In this document: piece after piece, positions 19,837 to 28,782 of the stretch | Position numbering within the stretch: the stretch's first letter is position 1 | Layout: every line of letters starts with the position of its first letter | Source: a virus | DNA length: 43,385 nt | Virus genome (UHGV): UHGV-0217911 | Strand: one strand, 5' to 3' | Made by a program: the position numbers and the translations under genes | Notes under the pieces: generated by a model | What the model was told of the DNA's origin: nothing | What the model saw: only the letters and a program-made list of their open reading frames with translations | Database searches by the model: none

Positions 19837-21915
19837 ATGACAGACATTACAGCTAATGTTGTAGTGAGTATGCCTTCGCAACTCTTCACTATGGCTCGTT
19901 CTTTTAAAGCGGTTGCCAATGGCAAAATTTATATCGGTAAAATTGACACTGACCCGGTAAATCCTGAAAACCAGATTCAGGTTTATGTGGAGAACGAAGA
20001 TGGTTCTCACGTTCCTGTTGCACAGCCAATCATCATTAACTCTGGCGGGTATCCTGTATATAACGGACAGATTGCCAAATTCGTTACCGTGCAAGGCCAT
20101 TCTATGGCTGTTTATGATGCATATGGTGCGCAGCAGTTTTATTTTCCTAATGTGCTGAAGTATGACCCTGATCAGTTTCAGAAGAGGTTGGCATCCTTTG
20201 ATGATGGTGATGGGGATGAATTAGTGTCGGTGAAACAACCATTCCCCGGAGCAGCAAATCAAACTCAACACCAAAAGAACCAACAAATCATTGATGTTCT
20301 TGACTTCGGTGCTCATCCATCGAATGCTGACAATAAAGTAGCTCTGCAATTTGCGCTAGATGCAATATATAGCATTGGAGGAGGTACACTACAGTTTTCA
20401 CTACCAGGCATATATACTTTGCTTTCTGAGTTGCAAATAAAATCAAATACTCACCTAAAGATGACTGATGGCGTAACCATTAAACGTAATTTTTCTAATG
20501 ACGTCATGCTGAGAATAAGCCCTAATACTGGCACTAACATTAAAATAACAGGCGGAATACTAGATGGAGGAGGACAAGACCACCCTACAGATCCTTTTGA
20601 CATCATTGCAGCCTCCTCACCAAGAAATCTTTCTATTGTTGGAGTAACATTTCTTGATGTAGTCGATTTTCATGCTGTAGATATTGCTGACGGGCAAGGG
20701 GTGATTATAAGAGACTGTAAGTTTCTTGGCTTCAAACCACTTTCCAACCGAAATTATTCAGAAGCGATCCAGTTAGATCCGGGGATTGAATCTCTTGGCG
20801 ATTATTACCCAAACATCAATGTTCTTGTTGATAACTGTTATTTTGGTTCAAATCCACAAAATACCACCACTGGGTTTGGGGCGTGGGGGGCGGGGGTTGG
20901 GAACCATGCTAATTCATATGGGAATCAGGACAAAAATATAAGGGTCATAAACTGCAGGTTCGATGGAATGCTCTTTGCCGGGGTAAGGGTTTTCAACTGG
21001 TATGATTGGGTGGTTAGCGGATGCTCTTTCTATAACAGTACCGCGCGAGGAGTTCATGTAACCCCATTCCCATCATCATCAAAACCACAGGGGGCAAGGA
21101 GGGGGCGCATTGTTGGCAATTATTTTGAAGGCGTTAGATCCCCGATTCTTCTGGCTGCACCTACATATCCATATACAGATACATCAGATGCATTTCATGA
21201 AGATATCGTAATATCCAACAATTCCATGTTTATTACAGAGTCTCAATCATATGCAGTAGACGCAAGATGGGTTTCAGGACTAACTGTCACTGGAAACACA
21301 GCAAGAGGAGGAATCGGTTTTTTCAAAGGTGATTTTATTAATAAATCAATCATCTCTAATAATGAATACGATTCAGGAACATCAAGTTCTTTATGGATTT
21401 CTGAAACTAATGCAGAAGAATTTATAGGGTCTGGTTTTTCGCATGATGTTGTAATTTCTAGCAACATCTTTAGAAACATTTCCCTGCATGGGATTCATAT
21501 TAATGGTAAATATTCAAATGTTACTATTCAATCAAACATTATAGTTGGGGTTTCTACCGCAGATAATAACCATAATGGCATACGAATTGACTCTGGTGCA
21601 GAAAATGTAATTGTTAGTTCAAATCAAATTCGTGATGGCGTTGCAAATAATAAACCATCAGTTGGTATATTTGCTACATCAAGCTGTAAGAGCGTGTCAT
21701 TTATAGGGAATGTTTCATTTGGAACATCAGCCACACAGAATAATCAAGCTACAGATAAAAGCTCACTTGTGATATTTGGGCAAGAAGGCAACCCAACATC
21801 TAGCGGAGTTGGAGCACCAGTTGGTTCTATTTACACTCGTTCTGATGGAGGTGGAAATACAGTACTTTATATAAAGGAAAGCAACACAAATGCTACAGGT
21901 TGGGTTAATAAGTAA
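19837..21915 (+). CDS. Tailspike protein: conserved P22-type N-terminal head-binding domain plus a divergent beta-helix receptor-binding domain
   Basis: The first ~110 aa ([13 protein letters not shown]...[25 protein letters not shown]...[24 protein letters not shown]) are P22 gp9-like. The remainder is AT-rich and unlike P22, with repetitive beta-helix-like segments. Confidence 0.85.
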
Positions 21916-22199
21916 AACCAGCATTTAAATACAATATATATCATAAAACTTACATAATAGTTATAACTATAATTCTTGCTTAAGAATTTATAAAAACTGA
22001 GACACACAAAGCTTTGCACTGGATTGCAAGGCTTTGTGCTCTTCTATGCTGAGTGGCTACATGTTTGAAGATCGTTGTGCCGTATTTGTGACATACACAT
22101 GACAACATCATGCATCAGCTTTCTGTTTGTGCCATCAACTATAGCTTAGTGAATGCGGTTAATGCTTGCTAAAACAGATAGTTATGATTGGTGCTACAG

Positions 22200-22245
22200 A
22201 TTCGTAATGCGAAGGTCGTAGGTTCGACTCCTATTATCGGCACCA
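22200..22245 (+). repeat. 46-bp copy of the tRNA-Thr (thrW-type) 3' end from anticodon loop to CCA; attR core of the P22-like prophage
   Basis: ATTCGTAATGCGAAGGTCGTAGGTTCGACTCCTATTATCGGCACCA carries the CGT anticodon loop, T-arm and acceptor 3' strand, but the 5' half of the tRNA is absent. Confidence 0.8.
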
Positions 22246-22849
22246 TTAAGAAAATCAATAACTTAGCTTAACTTCTCTAAGAAATTGTATCTTCTGTTAT
22301 CACTTACAAACGCCTATACGTTGTTATGGGCTTTGGTAGTGTAACACGTATGGGCGAGTAGTTCACAGGCTCAACCTCGTAACAAGTTCCTTTGAAGCTG
22401 GAAGACGTGCCACCGTCTCTAAACCTTCTACCAAAACTCTTAGCAAGATGTTCCACACCTGGCGCGGTGTCCAATGATGCTACACGTCGTGAGACGTTGC
22501 AGAGGATAAACAGGCTAAATGATGGGAAGAGTTTTAAGTGCATAGTGGATTAAAGCCCACCTCTTCAAAACCTAACTTGATCGGGAAAGAATCAAGCTCT
22601 AGCACGGTTTCGTCCACCGGAGTACAACGGGTGCCTGATAAGAGAAGAACTGCTAAGACTTCATAGCTTTTGTGAAAAAGCCCTTTTTAGTGGATACGCC
22701 TACGGCGCTTATTTTTTGGTATAACCATCAAAGGCGCTTTATGGCTCCTATTGTCTTGAAAATGTATCTTTACTTGTATTGTGTTTTATGCGTAGCCTTC
22801 CTGTGTAGTATGTAACTTGTTAATTTTCATATGAATACAGAGGCACACG

Positions 22850-23002
22850 ATGAAAAACATTGCAGCTATCAAACGTAATAACCGCAAGATTCACGCTCGT
22901 AAGTTCCTGTCTACGCCAGAAGGAAAAGCCTGGCTAGAGCGTAAACAGCGAGAGAACGAAGAAAGAAAACTCCTTAGTGAGTTGAAATGGCTTAAGGATT
23001 GA
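22850..23002 (+). CDS. Possible small basic protein (50 aa)
   Basis: ATG with GAGG 7 nt upstream; product MKNIAAIKRNNRKIHARKFLSTPEGKAWLERKQRENEERKLLSELKWLKD. Below the ORF-track length cutoff. Confidence 0.3.
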   Translation: MKNIAAIKRNNRKIHARKFLSTPEGKAWLERKQRENEERKLLSELKWLKD

Positions 23003-23567
23003 ATCACCAGTAGGCGCATAACACATCCAGCGATCAAAGATGTGTTTATGCACCTGATAGTGAAATTATTAAAGTCGTTTAGTTAACATCGCCATTGCTT
23101 GAGCAATAATTGCAACAGCGTCCATCTCTTCACTGGAAGCGATGCAAATGCGGTAACTAATAGCCACAACGAATACATCAATAACGAGAAAGTGAATAGT
23201 GTGAAGATGTTTTGAAAGTAAATGCATAACTTCCTCCGGTTTTACGATAGGAAGATTAGAACATGCATTAAATGATGTTACAAGGGTGGTAATTTACCCT
23301 AATAGTCTACTATTCACCTCAATCTACGTCAACCAATATTTGATGTAGATTTAATTTTCTTTTAAAAACAATGTGTTGCAATTTGTTGAATTTTGGGGTT
23401 AGGTTGTTTTTTGAACGTTTTCATCAAGTGTAAAGATACGTTTAGCCTTCATAGTGAGTTCAGTTACTGTCTTTTTCTCTGAAATCGGCGCAGACGTGAT
23501 CAATGTTTAACGCGAAGATCAGCGGCGTCAGGTCCACGCAGCGACAATTCTCAAATATCAGGAGGCA

Positions 23568-24125
23568 TTACGCTTCCTGCTCTTTCTTGATACGTTGCAC
23601 CGTCTGTGTGCTGACACTGAAATCTTTTGCTACGCTCCGAATTGATCCACCATTCGCGAGAGCGGCAACAATTCCCGCTCGATCAATTGCTTTTCCATTA
23701 CCACGTTTTGCTATACGTCCAGCGGCCTTAGCTGCGGCGATCCCCTCACGCTGCCGCTCAAGCATCATTTCACGTTCCATTTGTGCCACTGCTGCAAGCA
23801 CTGTGAGCATCATATTCCCTGCGGGAGAGTTCTTCCCTGTCTTAAAGTCTTCTTTATGGAAATGCACAGACACGCCGCGCTCTGTTAATTGCTCAACCGT
23901 TGCCAGTAGGTCGGCTGTATTACGGCAAAGTCGATCAATGCTGTGAACATGCAAAACATCACCTTCACGCACATAGTTCATCATTGCCTCAAACTGTGGG
24001 CGCTGGGTATTCTTGCCTGACGCTTTATCTTCAAAGACTTTATCAAGAGTTACTCCAGCTAATTGACGGTCTGTGTTTTGTTGGACAGTCGATACCCTAA
24101 TGTATCCAATATTAGCCATTTTCAT
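23568..24125 (-). CDS. Serine recombinase (resolvase/invertase family)
   Basis: 185 aa; N-terminal catalytic domain IGYIRVSTVQQNTDRQ with the active-site serine, and a C-terminal HTH (GGSIRSVAKDFSVSTQTVQRI). Confidence 0.85.
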   Translation of the reverse strand: MKMANIGYIRVSTVQQNTDRQLAGVTLDKVFEDKASGKNTQRPQFEAMMNYVREGDVLHVHSIDRLCRNTADLLATVEQLTERGVSVHFHKEDFKTGKNSPAGNMMLTVLAAVAQMEREMMLERQREGIAAAKAAGRIAKRGNGKAIDRAGIVAALANGGSIRSVAKDFSVSTQTVQRIKKEQEA

Positions 24126-24644
24126 TTTCCTTCTGTGTTGATTTGTGTGTAGTGATTATTGATCGTGTTGATTAGGTGTGTAAAGGACTTTTTTCACTAC
24201 GAAATTCGAAGGTTTTTAGTGTGGTGATTTAGCCTGCTTTATCACTACACGTCTTGCATGAGAATCATGTAGTTACGTTTTGGTAAAATTAGCAAGCTAT
24301 TAAATAGTGTGTTTATTTTGAAAAAATAATTTTTTGTTGCATTAAAGAAACTTGTTCGACAAATGATAGAACGTTTATTGAGCAACAATTTTGCAGTGAT
24401 GCGCTATATGCCGCATTACACAAGGCACAGCGAAAGTGATGTAAAAGTGAAGAAAGCTAACATTGCACTTTTAAGCTACTTTTCATTGAATTTTTACGTA
24501 GGAATTACACAGGGATTAATCATCAATTACATTGAATTTAAGCCTGTTTTAGATGTTTAATTTTGGTAGCAAGAAACACTTTTAGAAGATCATTGCACAG
24601 ATGTTATGTGATAAATGGATGTAACGGTAGGTCACTGTGAACTA

Positions 24645-24780
24645 CCCCCACAGAATTCTGTTATCCTTAACTTTTAAAGAAATATGCACCCTAACAGAAA
24701 ACTGTTACCCCAACCCTAACAGAATTATGTTAGACACCCCCACAGAAAACTGTTAGCCACCCCTACAGAATTTTGTTACC
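24645..24780. repeat. Five iterons (1 + 4 tandem, about 22-23 bp period), each containing the dyad AACAG-N4-CTGTT
   Basis: ACAGAA cores at 24650, 24694, 24719, 24742 and 24765; consensus CCCYWACAGAAWWYTGTTA, followed by an AT-rich stretch. Confidence 0.7.
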
Positions 24781-25742
24781 TATTAGATCAACTATCAAAC
24801 TACAATTAAATTATCTTTTATAAATTCTTTTATCTTTAAAGAATAATTAAGGGATACCCGTTAGGGAGTCTTCGACTATCCCTTAATCTATTGGCATTCG
24901 CCAGAACCTTGCACAAGTTAGAGTGTTAGTCGTTAGACTGCTTGTCATAACACATAGTTTTTTGTTTGTTGATGTTAGTTAGTAGATCTATGTTCGCTAA
25001 TGCCGCTCACAACGAATATGTAATCTACTATGTGCAAATAGCCTACGGCTTGCGTAAGGCTAAATAGTCTTGCGCTGTGCGCAGAACGATAATTAACTAA
25101 CTACCATCTAACGATTGAAATTTACTTGTGCAATAACCTGAGCGTAAGCGAATGGTTGTTAGTGTCTATGCGCTGTGCGCTTCAATAGTTCCATTGATGA
25201 GGCTTACGCCAATCTAACGATCATCAATCTATTTAAGAGAAAATCTATTGTGCAATACTCTGACGAGTGCAATAACCTTGTGTGCTACGCGTTAGCGATG
25301 TTAGCACACAGACAACAACCAACAACAAACAAAAAAGAAAGAATGGTTTTAGTAGTTGAAGGTTAAATAAGTTTCTACCGCTTAAATCAAGCCGTAGGCG
25401 AGCTAAACGTATATAAGGTAGGGAAACACTTAGCGGTAATAGATTAGCTCGTTATAGAGCTTCTGAGAGCTTTGCAGGTATTTTATAAGGTGTTTGAAAT
25501 CAGAGTTTATCTATCATCATCTTTCCATCATCTAACAAATACAAAATAAGCCCCTTAAACAAGCCTCTGACGAGATAAATAGCCTCTACATAAGGGAATG
25601 TCTTGTTTTTATCAAAACCTCGTCAGAATGCGATTGAGAGCGTTTTAGACAATAGTGGAGAATTGTACCAGATAAGATAGCACAAAAAGATAAGAAAAAT
25701 TATAAGAAATTGAAAAAGATCGTATTTTTTATGAAAGGGGGG

Positions 25743-25771
25743 TTGACAAAAGCCTCCATATGTAGTAAAGT
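25743..25771 (+). promoter_or_regulatory. Sigma70-like promoter candidate (TTGACA-17 bp-TAAAGT) for the downstream four-gene module
   Basis: Consensus -35 TTGACA with 17-bp spacing to a TAnnnT -10, about 120 bp upstream of the first ORF. Confidence 0.35.
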
Positions 25772-25891
25772 AAATGTGAGGGGTAAGAAAAGCATCTCCC
25801 CCATCTAAATAATCAAATCACAATACACTGCACTTTGAGCCGTCAGGCTGCAAGGTGTGTTTTTCTTTTATTTGAATAAGGAATTACAAAA

Positions 25892-26074
25892 ATGAAATGG
25901 TTTACACCAAATGACATTGTTTCTGCGTATCTCGCTGGTGAGATGACCCGCTACCAGGTTCGCCAGAATCGTAATACAGCCCGTCGCCGTGGCTACCCAG
26001 AGCGTGAAAAATGCTTTGACGACGCACTAAAAATTATTGATGAACTGCGTAAGGCAGAAGCAGAGAAAGAATAA
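25892..26074 (+). CDS. Small hypothetical protein (60 aa)
   Basis: ORF with AAGGAA 8 nt upstream; first gene of a tightly packed module. Confidence 0.45.
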   Translation: MKWFTPNDIVSAYLAGEMTRYQVRQNRNTARRRGYPEREKCFDDALKIIDELRKAEAEKE

Positions 26075-26095
26075 TAACAGGAGAAGGAGAAAACT

Positions 26096-26266
26096 ATGAG
26101 CGAAACTACAGAAAAGAAAAGACAACCACGCACTTGCTTTCATATTCCTGATGAAGTATTTCAGGTGTTGTTTAAAGAAGCCAGAAGTAAACGTATCACT
26201 GTTACAGATTACATTCTTGATATGTTGAAAAGAGAGGCTGAAACACTCTCAAACAAAAGCAAGTGA
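26096..26266 (+). CDS. Small ribbon-helix-helix-like DNA-binding protein (56 aa)
   Basis: GGAGAAGGAG SD; product MSETTEKKRQPRTCFHIPDEVFQVLFKEARSKRITVTDYILDMLKREAE has a beta-strand/helix/helix arrangement typical of CopG/Arc-type RHH proteins. Below the track cutoff. Confidence 0.5.
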   Translation: MSETTEKKRQPRTCFHIPDEVFQVLFKEARSKRITVTDYILDMLKREAETLSNKSK

Positions 26267-26319
26267 TTTTTATCACCATAGTAGCGCCGTAGAGCGTGAT
26301 TACATCAAGGAGATTTTTA

Positions 26320-26880
26320 ATGATTAATGAAGAACAATTTGTAAAAGTTCCTATGTGGATTCTAAAAATAAGCCAAGTAAACGGGCATAAATTTACAGAT
26401 AGTGCTAAAAACCTTTACTGCTATTTGAGAGGGTTTGATCGTGCATTTCCCTCTTACGCTAAGATAGGCGATGTTTTTGGCATAACACCAAGAGCAGCAG
26501 AAGAAAGGGTTAAGAAATTGCTCGAAATGGGATTAATTATAAAAGATGCACGACCAGGAAGCTCTAACCTTTATCGAGTGCTTGATATTCCAAAAGGAGA
26601 ATCATCACTACCTGATCCTTCTGAGAAAGAAAACGAATCTAATGAAATATTGAATGTTTCAGAAATCATCGTTGAAGAAGAAATACAGGAATCAGAGTTC
26701 CCTGAGCGGCCCGAAATTTTTACTTGGCTTCTTTCCCTTGATAAGAAGAAACCACCGCACGAAGAAACAGAAGACTACGAAGCATTAGAGCGTTATCGTG
26801 ATGAAGTGCTGACGCTCAAGACACCTTTTAACATCGTATTGAATATGATTAATGATGCATTACAAGGAGAAGCCGCATAA
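26320..26880 (+). CDS. Winged-HTH protein resembling phage/plasmid replication initiator N-terminal domains
   Basis: AAGGAG SD before the ATG at 26320. N-terminal NLYCYLRGFDRAFPSYAKIGDVFGITPRAAEERVKKLLEMGLI is a wHTH pattern seen in Rep/replisome-organizer proteins; the C-terminus is acidic. Confidence 0.55.
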   Translation: MINEEQFVKVPMWILKISQVNGHKFTDSAKNLYCYLRGFDRAFPSYAKIGDVFGITPRAAEERVKKLLEMGLIIKDARPGSSNLYRVLDIPKGESSLPDPSEKENESNEILNVSEIIVEEEIQESEFPERPEIFTWLLSLDKKKPPHEETEDYEALERYRDEVLTLKTPFNIVLNMINDALQGEAA

Positions 26881-27188
26881 TGGAAGAAGATATTAGCAAT
26901 GCAATGGAACAACTTTTAGATCTGACTATCTCACTACAAACAAGAATAAATCAAGCCTATTCAGATTTATGCGATTACACGCTCTCTCAATGCGTTATTA
27001 GCTTAATGAAGGTGAATGTAAGCCTTGACGATTTTATCTCTCTGGTGAGCGATTTAGAGCTAATTGAGGACGATGCCAAGATGTGCACTCAAACCATCAC
27101 AGACACCGCCAGCACGTTAAAGGCTGCAAGTGAAGAGATTCAGCAATTAGTAGATGATTTAGCAAAAAGTGCTATTTTCTCTAAATGA
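26880..27188 (+). CDS. Acidic hypothetical protein (102 aa)
   Basis: ORF with start overlapping the upstream stop (translational coupling). Confidence 0.5.
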   Translation: MEEDISNAMEQLLDLTISLQTRINQAYSDLCDYTLSQCVISLMKVNVSLDDFISLVSDLELIEDDAKMCTQTITDTASTLKAASEEIQQLVDDLAKSAIFSK

Positions 27189-27460
27189 TAATGAAAATTA
27201 TTTGCATTTATAACGATTTCATTATATAATAATATTAGGGGTAGATAAAAAGGTTTTGACTGGTGTTAATCCTTCTACTGTCATAAATCCCTGCATATGG
27301 AAGGTGATAGCCTCAAAGGTTGAGTGGCATTAACCTCTAACAAATATTACCTTCCATCCCCTCAAGAAGTTTTAGAATAATCATAACTCCCTCTTTGATT
27401 GTTGATTGTTTCTACGTTGTGTTGATGAATGTTGTTAGGCATTGTGCTTAATTTTGATAA

Positions 27461-27508
27461 AAGCGGGTAGGTGTTATCTCCTTGCCCTTCCCGCTTTTAT
27501 TTTTCATC
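27461..27508 (+). terminator. Terminator-like hairpin plus T-run
   Basis: AAAAGCGGG ... CCCGCTTTT stem with TATTTTT tail. Confidence 0.4.
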
Positions 27509-28182
27509 TATGCTTATCCTAAAGCTCCTTATTTTGTCCGAAAACATTAAAGAGCCTTACACTGATAGTTATATTTTATAACTATTTACTAACATCATTA
27601 AACTCTTATTTAATGACGGAAGTTAGTAACAGAATAATCTATTAAGTTGTTGTCAAAAACAATCATCTGCATAGCGTTAGCCGCAAGCAGAGAGAGTTTA
27701 GCTAAGAATTGTGCAATAACCTTTGGAAATATTGATAGCAAAACGGGTTTTATAGACTGCAAATCTATAATCTTTGGTTGTAAAAACGCTTTTTCTGAAA
27801 CGGTAGATTATTGTTGGTGTAGTTAATCCTATTAAAATTTAATCTGTGAGTAGATGAGAATTGGAATAGTGATTCCTTAAAGCCTTACTTTGTTGCATCC
27901 ACAGCAAAAACAGGCAGCGGTTAGCCACCGCATCCAGAATATCAGATCTTAGTGATTCCAGGGGCAACTCCTAAGAGCCTTCCTTCTAAGATCTGATATT
28001 CATCCTTTAAGCATATCATCAAGTATATTTAAAAAGTGTATTTGCTGATATGTTTAATCCTCTTATAGTTTAACTTATCAATTATGTAATTGCCCGCACG
28101 TTAAAGCCCCTTTGCTGGTCAGAATTAACCTCTTACGGCATTGGGGCTTTTTATTTGTCTGGCACTAACAGGAACGTTATTT

Positions 28183-28380
28183 ATGAAACAAGAAATGATT
28201 ATCAGCAAAGACGGGGAAACGATGATTGTTAGTGATGAAAACCTCATTAAGGTTGCCGCACTGTTGGGAGTTACTCCCGAAAGTCTTCGTTCTACCACTG
28301 CCCAATTATTTAAATCGGCTGATGCGGTTAGTCTTGCTGATGCCCTTAAATCTAAAATTAAACAACTGAAAGGAAAATAA
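28183..28380 (+). CDS. Small hypothetical protein (65 aa), first gene of a six-gene operon
   Basis: ATG at 28183 with AGGA upstream; the track ORF start at 28141 lies inside an upstream hairpin. Confidence 0.5.
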   Translation: MKQEMIISKDGETMIVSDENLIKVAALLGVTPESLRSTTAQLFKSADAVSLADALKSKIKQLKGK

Positions 28381-28384
28381 TCTT

Positions 28385-28768
28385 ATGGCTAACCCATATG
28401 GAAAATTAAAAGCAGTGAATGCGGATAATTCCCGTTCACGCTGTAAGGTAGTAGCTTACGCTGCTGATCCAGTGCTGCAAGATCGCCTCGTCAAACTGGC
28501 TTCACCTCTCACTGACGATCTTATTGTCGGGGCTTTGCTGAAAGCCGATGGCACCAAAGCAACAACTGCATCTGATATTGCTCACGTAGTAGTTGAACCG
28601 GCTTATGAAGGACAGGAAAGCGTAGTGGTTGCACATCCTACTTTCGTTATTCTGGCTGAAGATGGGATTGAATTTAACAGCATGGAAAAGGCAAGTGTTA
28701 TTGCAAAACTGCAATCTCTCGGCTTTGTAATTGCTGGTTATGAAGAACTTGCGATCCCTACGACTTAA
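28385..28768 (+). CDS. Hypothetical protein (127 aa)
   Basis: Tightly packed behind the preceding gene (4-bp gap); no motif recognized. Confidence 0.6.
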   Translation: MANPYGKLKAVNADNSRSRCKVVAYAADPVLQDRLVKLASPLTDDLIVGALLKADGTKATTASDIAHVVVEPAYEGQESVVVAHPTFVILAEDGIEFNSMEKASVIAKLQSLGFVIAGYEELAIPTT

Positions 28769-28782
28769 CAAGGAAAATAATA

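Follow-up and report, generated by a model that had tools for sequence, protein, structure and literature searches.

The locus considered here lies in a stretch of 43,385 nucleotides (nt) from UHGV virus genome UHGV-0217911, analyzed over its whole length and called the window below. It consists of a small serine recombinase gene and a cluster of short repeats directly upstream of its start, both carried by an integrative island at the 3' end of the tRNA gene thrW. The features of the gene and its upstream region, in coordinates of the window, are the following.

23568..24125, minus strand: open reading frame (ORF), 185 amino acids (aa) as called
23568..24119, minus strand: serine recombinase (resolvase) gene, 183 aa, with an alternative upstream ATG at 24125
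24134..24156: candidate res site III region, same-orientation half-sites 24134-24142 and 24148-24156, adjoining the Shine-Dalgarno sequence
24155..24184, minus strand: predicted sigma-70 promoter of the recombinase, -35 TTTACA (24184-24179), 18-nt spacer, -10 AATAAT (24160-24155)
24164..24201: candidate accessory res site II, half-sites 24164-24172 and 24193-24201, 20-base-pair (bp) spacer with the -35 hexamer
24220..24249: res site I, candidate crossover site, 30 bp, TGTGGTGAT-N12-ATCACTACA, a 9-N12-9 inverted repeat

The recombinase probably starts at 24119, since MANIGY is the N-terminus of all its relatives and the Shine-Dalgarno sequence GAAGGA (24128-24133) lies 8 nt ahead of the second ATG; the 183-aa protein from this start is identical to RefSeq WP_001273869.1. 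According to Pfam, it comprises a PF00239 Resolvase catalytic domain (E 1e-38) and a C-terminal helix-turn-helix (HTH_23, residues 146-182), and no transposase ORF adjoins the gene, as an earlier note on this DNA had stated in describing a resolvase/invertase-family serine recombinase without a transposase. The catalytic residues Arg10, Ser12, Arg65 and Arg68 are invariant in an alignment of 21 sequences. In the comparison with solved structures, YIRVSTVQQ of the recombinase aligns with YARVSTSQQ, and the best relatives are the Tn3 and gamma-delta resolvases (E 1e-27), the identity with Tn3 resolvase amounting to 67 of 175 aligned residues (38%); Sin is a weaker match than Tn3 (E 1e-18 to 1e-11). 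The recombinase itself is an ordinary protein of a known type, and the element surrounding it is the more unusual object. Literature searches yielded no description of this particular resolvase family.

The copy of the gene in a related island inserted at thiM differs from the one in the window by 30 nt, with 26 synonymous and only 3 non-synonymous codon changes, which indicates purifying selection on the recombinase. The module formed by the gene and its res is present in 296 of 5426 complete E. coli genomes, at least 80% of its length being retained in 294 of them, and an intact recombinase is annotated in every listed match among these 296 genomes.

The region upstream of the gene contains six half-sites of one 9-mer (TGTAGTGAT-like) inside 116 bp (24134-24249), namely at 24134-42, 24148-56, 24164-72, 24193-201 (reverse), 24220-28 and 24241-49 (reverse). 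All of the repeat copies described in the earlier note are found here (GTGTTGATT at 24135-24143 and 24165-24173, GTAGTGA at 24149-24155, TCACTAC at 24195-24201 and 24243-24249), and they can be recast as these half-sites. The distance between the centers of site I and site II is 52 bp. The predicted recombinase promoter agrees with the consensus in 10 of 12 positions and is embedded in sites II and III, so autoregulation may be expected, as in Tn3. Site I is located about 60 bp upstream of this promoter, and no divergent promoter is predicted.

The degenerate motif TGTDKTGAT has five exact matches in the window, four of them within the 116 bp, the sole match outside the cluster being at 27418. 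The site I motif TGTRGTGAT-N12-ATCACYACA occurs once in the window, without mismatches, at 24220-24249 (0.09 occurrences expected). In shuffled sequences, the six copies of one 9-mer in the 160 nt upstream of the gene are equaled in 5 of 100 cases, which is marginal, and the 9-N12-9 inverted repeat with 8 of 9 matches in 13 of 500. Across loci the picture is more uniform: all 16 tested are at or above approximately the 90th percentile of their own shuffles, and eight of them exceed all 100.

Strong evidence for the res comes from comparison with other loci rather than from the window itself. The comparison set comprised 20 relatives with recombinases 54-94% identical to that of the window, from small plasmids and islands of other Enterobacterales, and the half-site layout recurs in all 20 loci at the same distances from the start codon. 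Site I (30 bp) consists of a forward half-site at about -130 and a reverse one 21 nt later. For site II, the forward half-site is at about -80, with its reverse partner 24-30 nt further on and a -35 hexamer (TTGAY or TTTACA) in the spacer, and two further half-sites are found at about -37 and -23. In particular, a 9-N12-9 inverted repeat is present 124-156 nt upstream of the start in 11 of 21 sequences tested, and a forward/reverse pair of half-sites at the site I spacing is seen in most relatives, the half-sites being lineage-specific. At site III the 14-15-bp register is retained in most lineages; the lineages L003 and L011-L014 have an inverted pair at this position instead of direct half-sites.

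Seven half-site variants are distinguished by lineage (TGTAGTGAT, TGTAGCGAT, TGTATTCAT, CGTACCGAT, TGTTGTAAT, TGTATCGAT and TGTAGTAAT), and across them the half-site sequence co-varies with the predicted recognition helix of the recombinase (VSTQTVQRIK, VSTNTISRIK, VAPSTVQRIK, VAKSTVQRIK, VSTRTVMNIK, VSLNTVYRVQ and ISTRTVQNIK). A constant layout combined with co-varying protein and DNA is a signature expected of real binding sites. Since the layout is conserved and the half-sites track the recognition helix, the upstream repeats are best read as a multi-subsite res, in agreement with what the earlier note had suspected.

The closest relatives of the recombinase reside on small plasmids recorded as circular (2-6 kb), where it is the sole recombinase and has one site each; these are a 5.7-kb plasmid of Klebsiella and 2-kb and 5.5-5.8-kb plasmids of E. 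coli, one of them ColE1-like. Two more relatives are encoded on contigs with terminal overlaps, corresponding to circles of 4.9 and 5.4 kb, and others in small integrase-bearing chromosomal islands of other Enterobacterales. The three complete 2-kb plasmids of E. coli/Salmonella (NZ_AP027492, 1952 bp, the L003 of the comparison; NZ_CP130129; NZ_CP116175) have a 69%-identical resolvase as the sole annotated gene, preceded by three inverted-repeat subsites, and they also contain short upstream repeats (CCTAAGTAACC-like). The Rfam search detected no RNAI in plasmid NZ_AP027492.

The earlier note had seen no obvious cognate cargo for the recombinase. This part does not stand, as the gene is itself held by a 12.1-kb integrative element (22248-34346) between 26-bp repeats of the thrW 3' end, whose main features are listed here.

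22222..22247, plus strand: attL core, formed by the 3' end of tRNA-Thr thrW, which also belongs to attR of the neighboring P22-like prophage
24643..24781, plus strand: five 23-bp-spaced iterons, each with a TAACAG-N4-CTGTTA palindrome, followed by an A+T-rich stretch (about 24782-24850)
26296..26880, plus strand: initiator-like protein with winged-helix HTH_36 and O-like PHROG matches, RefSeq start 26320
28783..29814, plus strand: major-capsid-protein homologue, with relatives at 42-49% identity that have PF03864 and the name major capsid protein
30200..32101, plus strand: tape-measure-protein homologue (Phi92_gp134, E 1e-48), 32% identical to the tape measure of phage Mt1B1_P17
32175..32831, plus strand: Dit-like/tube-initiator homologue (Phi92_gp135, E 2e-68), 64% identical to Mt1B1_P17 gp134
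32906..34270, minus strand: tyrosine integrase of the island, maximal ORF, called as 425 aa in RefSeq
34321..34346, plus strand: attR core, 24 of 26 positions identical to attL, delimiting the 12.1-kb island

The order of the island is therefore resolvase and res, a 1.6-kb stretch with no gene annotated, initiator, capsid, tape-measure and tube-initiator homologues, and integrase; no portal, terminase or lysis genes were recognized in it, and PADLOC gave no defense-system match among its proteins. The iterons and the A+T-rich stretch form a candidate replication origin, and the iterons occur together with the same initiator N-terminal domain (L001, L006, L008). The 1.6-kb stretch (24260-25890) has no annotated gene in RefSeq genomes, and a gap of similar size occurs in all island variants. 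It also holds paired repeats (25097-25141 and 25203-25263) and two copies of GCGCTGTGCGC, and a good sigma-70 promoter (TTGACA at about 25744, TAAAGT at about 25767) faces the operon at 25892. Rfam, run on 21900-35000, revealed nothing credible in this gap.

In genomes that lack the prophage, the island directly adjoins tRNA-Thr. Members of the same island family are found elsewhere with other integrases, at tRNA-Gly (L178) and at the thiM riboswitch (7.6 kb, L009), as well as inside an IncF plasmid (L007) and in Klebsiella (L179). What fills the resolvase slot can be exchanged between island variants: in Klebsiella it holds a 186-aa tyrosine recombinase (L179, 3835-4395). In E. coli strain 3R the slot is occupied by a 183-aa protein with no Pfam match, encoded on the opposite strand (L008, 10325-10876). 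Exchange of modules through res has left no sign, as the similarity breakpoints among island variants are not at site I.

The reading that we favor, and hold with considerable though not full confidence, is that the protein is an active resolvase of the Tn3/gamma-delta type, that 24134-24249 is its cognate res, and that together they monomerize multimers of the excised island. Recombinase dimers would bind site I, where crossover takes place, and the accessory sites II and III, and by occupying the accessory sites over its own promoter the recombinase would repress its own synthesis. In the chromosome the res would be inert, because an integrated island carries only one copy. The 12.1-kb island would be excised by its own tyrosine integrase and replicate from the iteron origin, or else arrive in multiple copies. 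Circles bearing more than one res, produced as replication multimers or by recircularization of multi-copy DNA after transfer, would then have directly repeated res on one supercoiled molecule, and recombination at site I would release monomers to be inherited, packaged or integrated as single copies. The stage at which resolution matters could be plasmid-like maintenance, the time before integration, or the time after injection.

An island would have use for a resolvase if it replicated as a circle after excision, and the small plasmids that carry its relatives, the att repeats, the integrase, the iterons and the initiator are all consistent with such a form. The earlier note had suggested that multimers of a plasmid-like form of the island could be resolved, and this remains the most probable function. 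That a small tyrosine recombinase takes the place of the resolvase in the homologous island of Klebsiella also counts in favor of resolution.

Several observations weigh against this reading. The parsing into subsites, with its predicted boundaries, is our own reading of the sequence; the repeat statistics drawn from the window alone are only marginal; and the half-sites of site III are direct rather than inverted in the window lineage. The predicted attP junction had no matches in IMG/VR and JGI metagenomes, a search by exact matches only and hence of limited power, and public contigs showed neither circles nor multimers of the island. Island variants without the recombinase exist (strain 3R, L008), so the gene is dispensable for persistence of the island. 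Moreover, resolving concatemers ahead of packaging would work against the island if these are its packaging substrate, and some control of timing would be needed. A 5.6-kb Logan contig (L094) was considered as a possible episome; its ends are the att repeats of an integrated copy, and it gives no proof of one.

Among the alternatives, the one that survives best, while still being unlikely, is a domesticated resolvase that acts mainly as a DNA-binding regulator, its sites serving as operators for its own promoter or else for origin and early transcription, with no physiologically relevant recombination. The promoter embedded in sites II and III, the single res per chromosome copy and the existence of islands without the gene would all fit such a role. 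However, the catalytic Ser and Arg residues are invariant in 21 diverse relatives, and a pure repressor needs none of them; site I lies well upstream of the promoter and retains crossover-type geometry in most lineages; and there is no predicted divergent promoter.

It is less probable still that the gene and its res are a relic of a Tn3-family transposon, left after loss of tnpA and having no present role. This would account for the Tn3-like geometry of the res, for the 38% identity to Tn3 TnpR, and for the annotation of relatives at 45-50% identity as TnpR on Acinetobacter plasmids. Still, neither the window nor any of 15 related loci has a transposase ORF of about 1000 aa next to the gene (no search was aimed at terminal inverted repeats), the module is constant in plasmids and islands across genera, and strong purifying selection acts on the gene, which appears intact in the roughly 296 E. 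coli genomes that have it.

We see very little room for a Hin/Gin/Cin-type DNA invertase that would switch expression by inverting a neighboring segment, the other possibility raised in the earlier note. In its favor, PHROG_125, labeled 'DNA invertase', matches the recombinase with E 2e-62, and Gin invertase is nearly as close to it as Tn3 resolvase (E 7e-25); large non-coding regions are also present on both sides of the gene. The DNA, however, offers no partner for inversion: a single site-I-type sequence is found in the 43 kb on both strands with up to 3 mismatches allowed, and the half-site motif is limited to the 116-bp cluster, apart from the isolated match mentioned above. Collinearity over 22200-28400 (6.2 kb) holds in 104 complete E. 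coli genomes, and a scan of 22300-25900 brought out no opposite-strand arrangement. In addition, hix and gix are simple 26-bp sites, whereas the site of this recombinase has candidate accessory subsites, typical of resolvases, and a 12-bp spacer; its closest relatives are the sole recombinases of 2-6-kb plasmids with one site each. The hix/gix-like core AAACC-NN-GGTTT and the local repeat AAGGTTTTTAGTG were considered as invertase sites and rejected, their counts being at chance level and no partner being present. We thus read the protein as a resolvase and not an invertase: the 43 kb contain neither another site I nor a Tn3-type transposase, and about 100 collinear E. coli genomes show no inverted isoform.

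Equally hard to maintain is the idea that the recombinase integrates or excises the island or some sub-element. Some serine recombinases do act as integrases, and the gene is about 1.3 kb from attL. Yet the island is bounded by 26-bp thrW 3'-end repeats with an intact tyrosine integrase alongside, and nothing like site I is seen at either end. Members of the family inserted at thrW, tRNA-Gly and thiM combine different tyrosine integrases with the same resolvase, and the 183-aa protein lacks the large C-terminal domain of serine integrases.

The system favored here, a resolvase with its cognate res, resembles Tn3/gamma-delta in the protein family, in the binding region of about 116 bp directly upstream of the gene, in the crossover-type inverted repeat placed farthest from the gene and followed by two candidate accessory regions, and in the predicted promoter inside the latter. 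The distance between sites I and II is 53 bp in gamma-delta res, one more than in the window. The differences are the lack of a transposase and of recognized transposon ends, a site I of 30 bp versus 28 bp, direct half-sites at site III in the window lineage, and the host, which is an integrative island or small plasmid and not a transposon. In RK2/RP4 ParA-res, Sin and the beta recombinase, the resolvase and its multi-subsite res work for a replicon and not for a transposon, and Sin has directly repeated half-sites in an accessory site. With such plasmid multimer-resolution systems the recombinase shares the location of its nearest relatives on 2-6-kb plasmids, while the copy in the window is chromosomally integrated; Sin, the only one of them compared by sequence, is a weaker match than Tn3. 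Invertases of the Hin/Gin/Cin type have the same size and domain architecture, and differ in that the recombinase studied here has no inverted partner, no orientation polymorphism, and a site with candidate accessory subsites.

A further set of observations links the island to phi92-like phages of the genus Phapecoctavirus, to which Mt1B1_P17, a virulent phage of 151 kb, belongs. The element concerned lies on the other side of the recombinase gene.

23482..23564: non-coding block 3' of the recombinase, homologous to the Phapecoctavirus boundary between unique sequence and terminal repeat, candidate packaging-site mimic

This block of about 80 nt lies directly 3' of the resolvase stop codon and is 81-87% identical to the phage boundary. 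It is matched in about 65 Phapecoctavirus genomes, usually a few hundred bases from the end of the record. The record of Mt1B1_P17 has exact terminal repeats of 328 bp, and the island block spans the boundary between its unique and repeat parts; direct terminal repeats have been reported as typical of this phage subfamily (PMC12695924). Next to recombinases with only 63% identity, a 23-mer core of the block (23527-23549) remains unchanged, which argues that the core is under selection. The block is thus a candidate mimic of a packaging end. The phage-like core of the block downstream of the resolvase slot is also absent from strain 3R.

Moreover, the phage protein gp053 of Mt1B1_P17 (L175, 20722-21708) has two winged-helix domains, the first of them 100% identical to the N-terminus of the island initiator (26296-26631 in the window) and the second sharing 79% identity with the thiM-island initiator. 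Toward its C-terminus, gp053 has a weak similarity to MUG113/T5orf172 (GIY-YIG-like) that stays just below the Pfam threshold. An iteron array was looked for in phage Mt1B1_P17 and none was found. The architecture of gp053 is like that of Odn of phage ICP1, an origin-directed nuclease against PLE satellites (PMC8263062), in that a helper protein consists of the DNA-binding domain of a satellite initiator fused to a T5orf172-like region. The island looks like a member of an undescribed satellite family of phi92-like virulent E. coli phages, and no description of Phapecoctavirus satellites was found in literature searches. A cointegrate with the helper phage mediated by the resolvase was also considered and rejected, as no phage sequence resembles site I with fewer than 4 mismatches.

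The P1 Cre-lox system serves the cyclization of injected DNA and the resolution of dimers; Cre, a tyrosine recombinase, acts on a simple site and does not need supercoiling. As in P1, the recombination site here is near the candidate packaging start of a presumably concatemer-packaged replicon, the res being about 625-740 bp from the candidate terminal-repeat boundary at 23509. It is possible, though we put it forward only tentatively, that the boundary mimic, the resolvase and the res (23482-24249) form a DNA-processing module of undescribed phi92-like satellites. The island would be packaged from the mimicked end, the resolvase would give monomer circles after injection or replication in a manner similar to Cre-lox, and some helpers would counter the island with an Odn-like gp053.

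The island shares with PLE and PICMI elements (PMC8263062, PMC10803314) a small size, an integrase, a candidate iteron origin and an initiator-like protein, and PICMI are packaged as concatemers (PMC10803314). The differences are that no resolvase is mentioned in PMC8263062 or PMC10803314, and that the island carries capsid, tape-measure and tube-initiator homologues, its own dependence on a helper being only a candidate feature. PIMEs (bioRxiv 10.64898/2026.01.12.698999) and EcCIMP1, a PICI found at the same thrW site (PMC11773190), were also compared and proved to be different elements.

The surroundings of the island in the window are composite. Positions 1-22247 contain the late genes of the P22-like prophage, whose attR duplicates the thrW 3' end; its late region ends with a 692-aa tailspike (19837-21915) that has a P22 Head_binding domain and a beta-helix. 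ARAGORN detected no complete tRNA in the window, because the prophage is inserted in tandem with the island. Beyond attR of the island, there are a truncated second integrase (Arm-binding fragment, 34499-34837), a MarR-family regulator (within 34499-40052) and, on the minus strand, the vacuolating autotransporter toxin gene vat (35922-40052). The region 34499-40052 is the classical VAT pathogenicity island, so that thrW carries at least three stacked elements.

With a resolvase and its res at this place, a phase-variation switch beside the vat toxin island is set aside. The seven natural pairs of recognition helix and half-site constitute a specificity table for the engineering of small serine recombinases. 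The gene also marks a modular family of 7-12-kb integrative elements, present in about 5% of complete E. coli genomes and in other Enterobacterales and inserted at thrW, tRNA-Gly and thiM. Its links to phi92-like phages, which are of the type used in therapy, suggest an E. coli counterpart of the arms race between ICP1 and PLE. If it is true that satellites monomerize their packaged or replicated DNA by means of a resolvase, this would be a step of the life cycle that is undescribed in the papers on satellites that were consulted.

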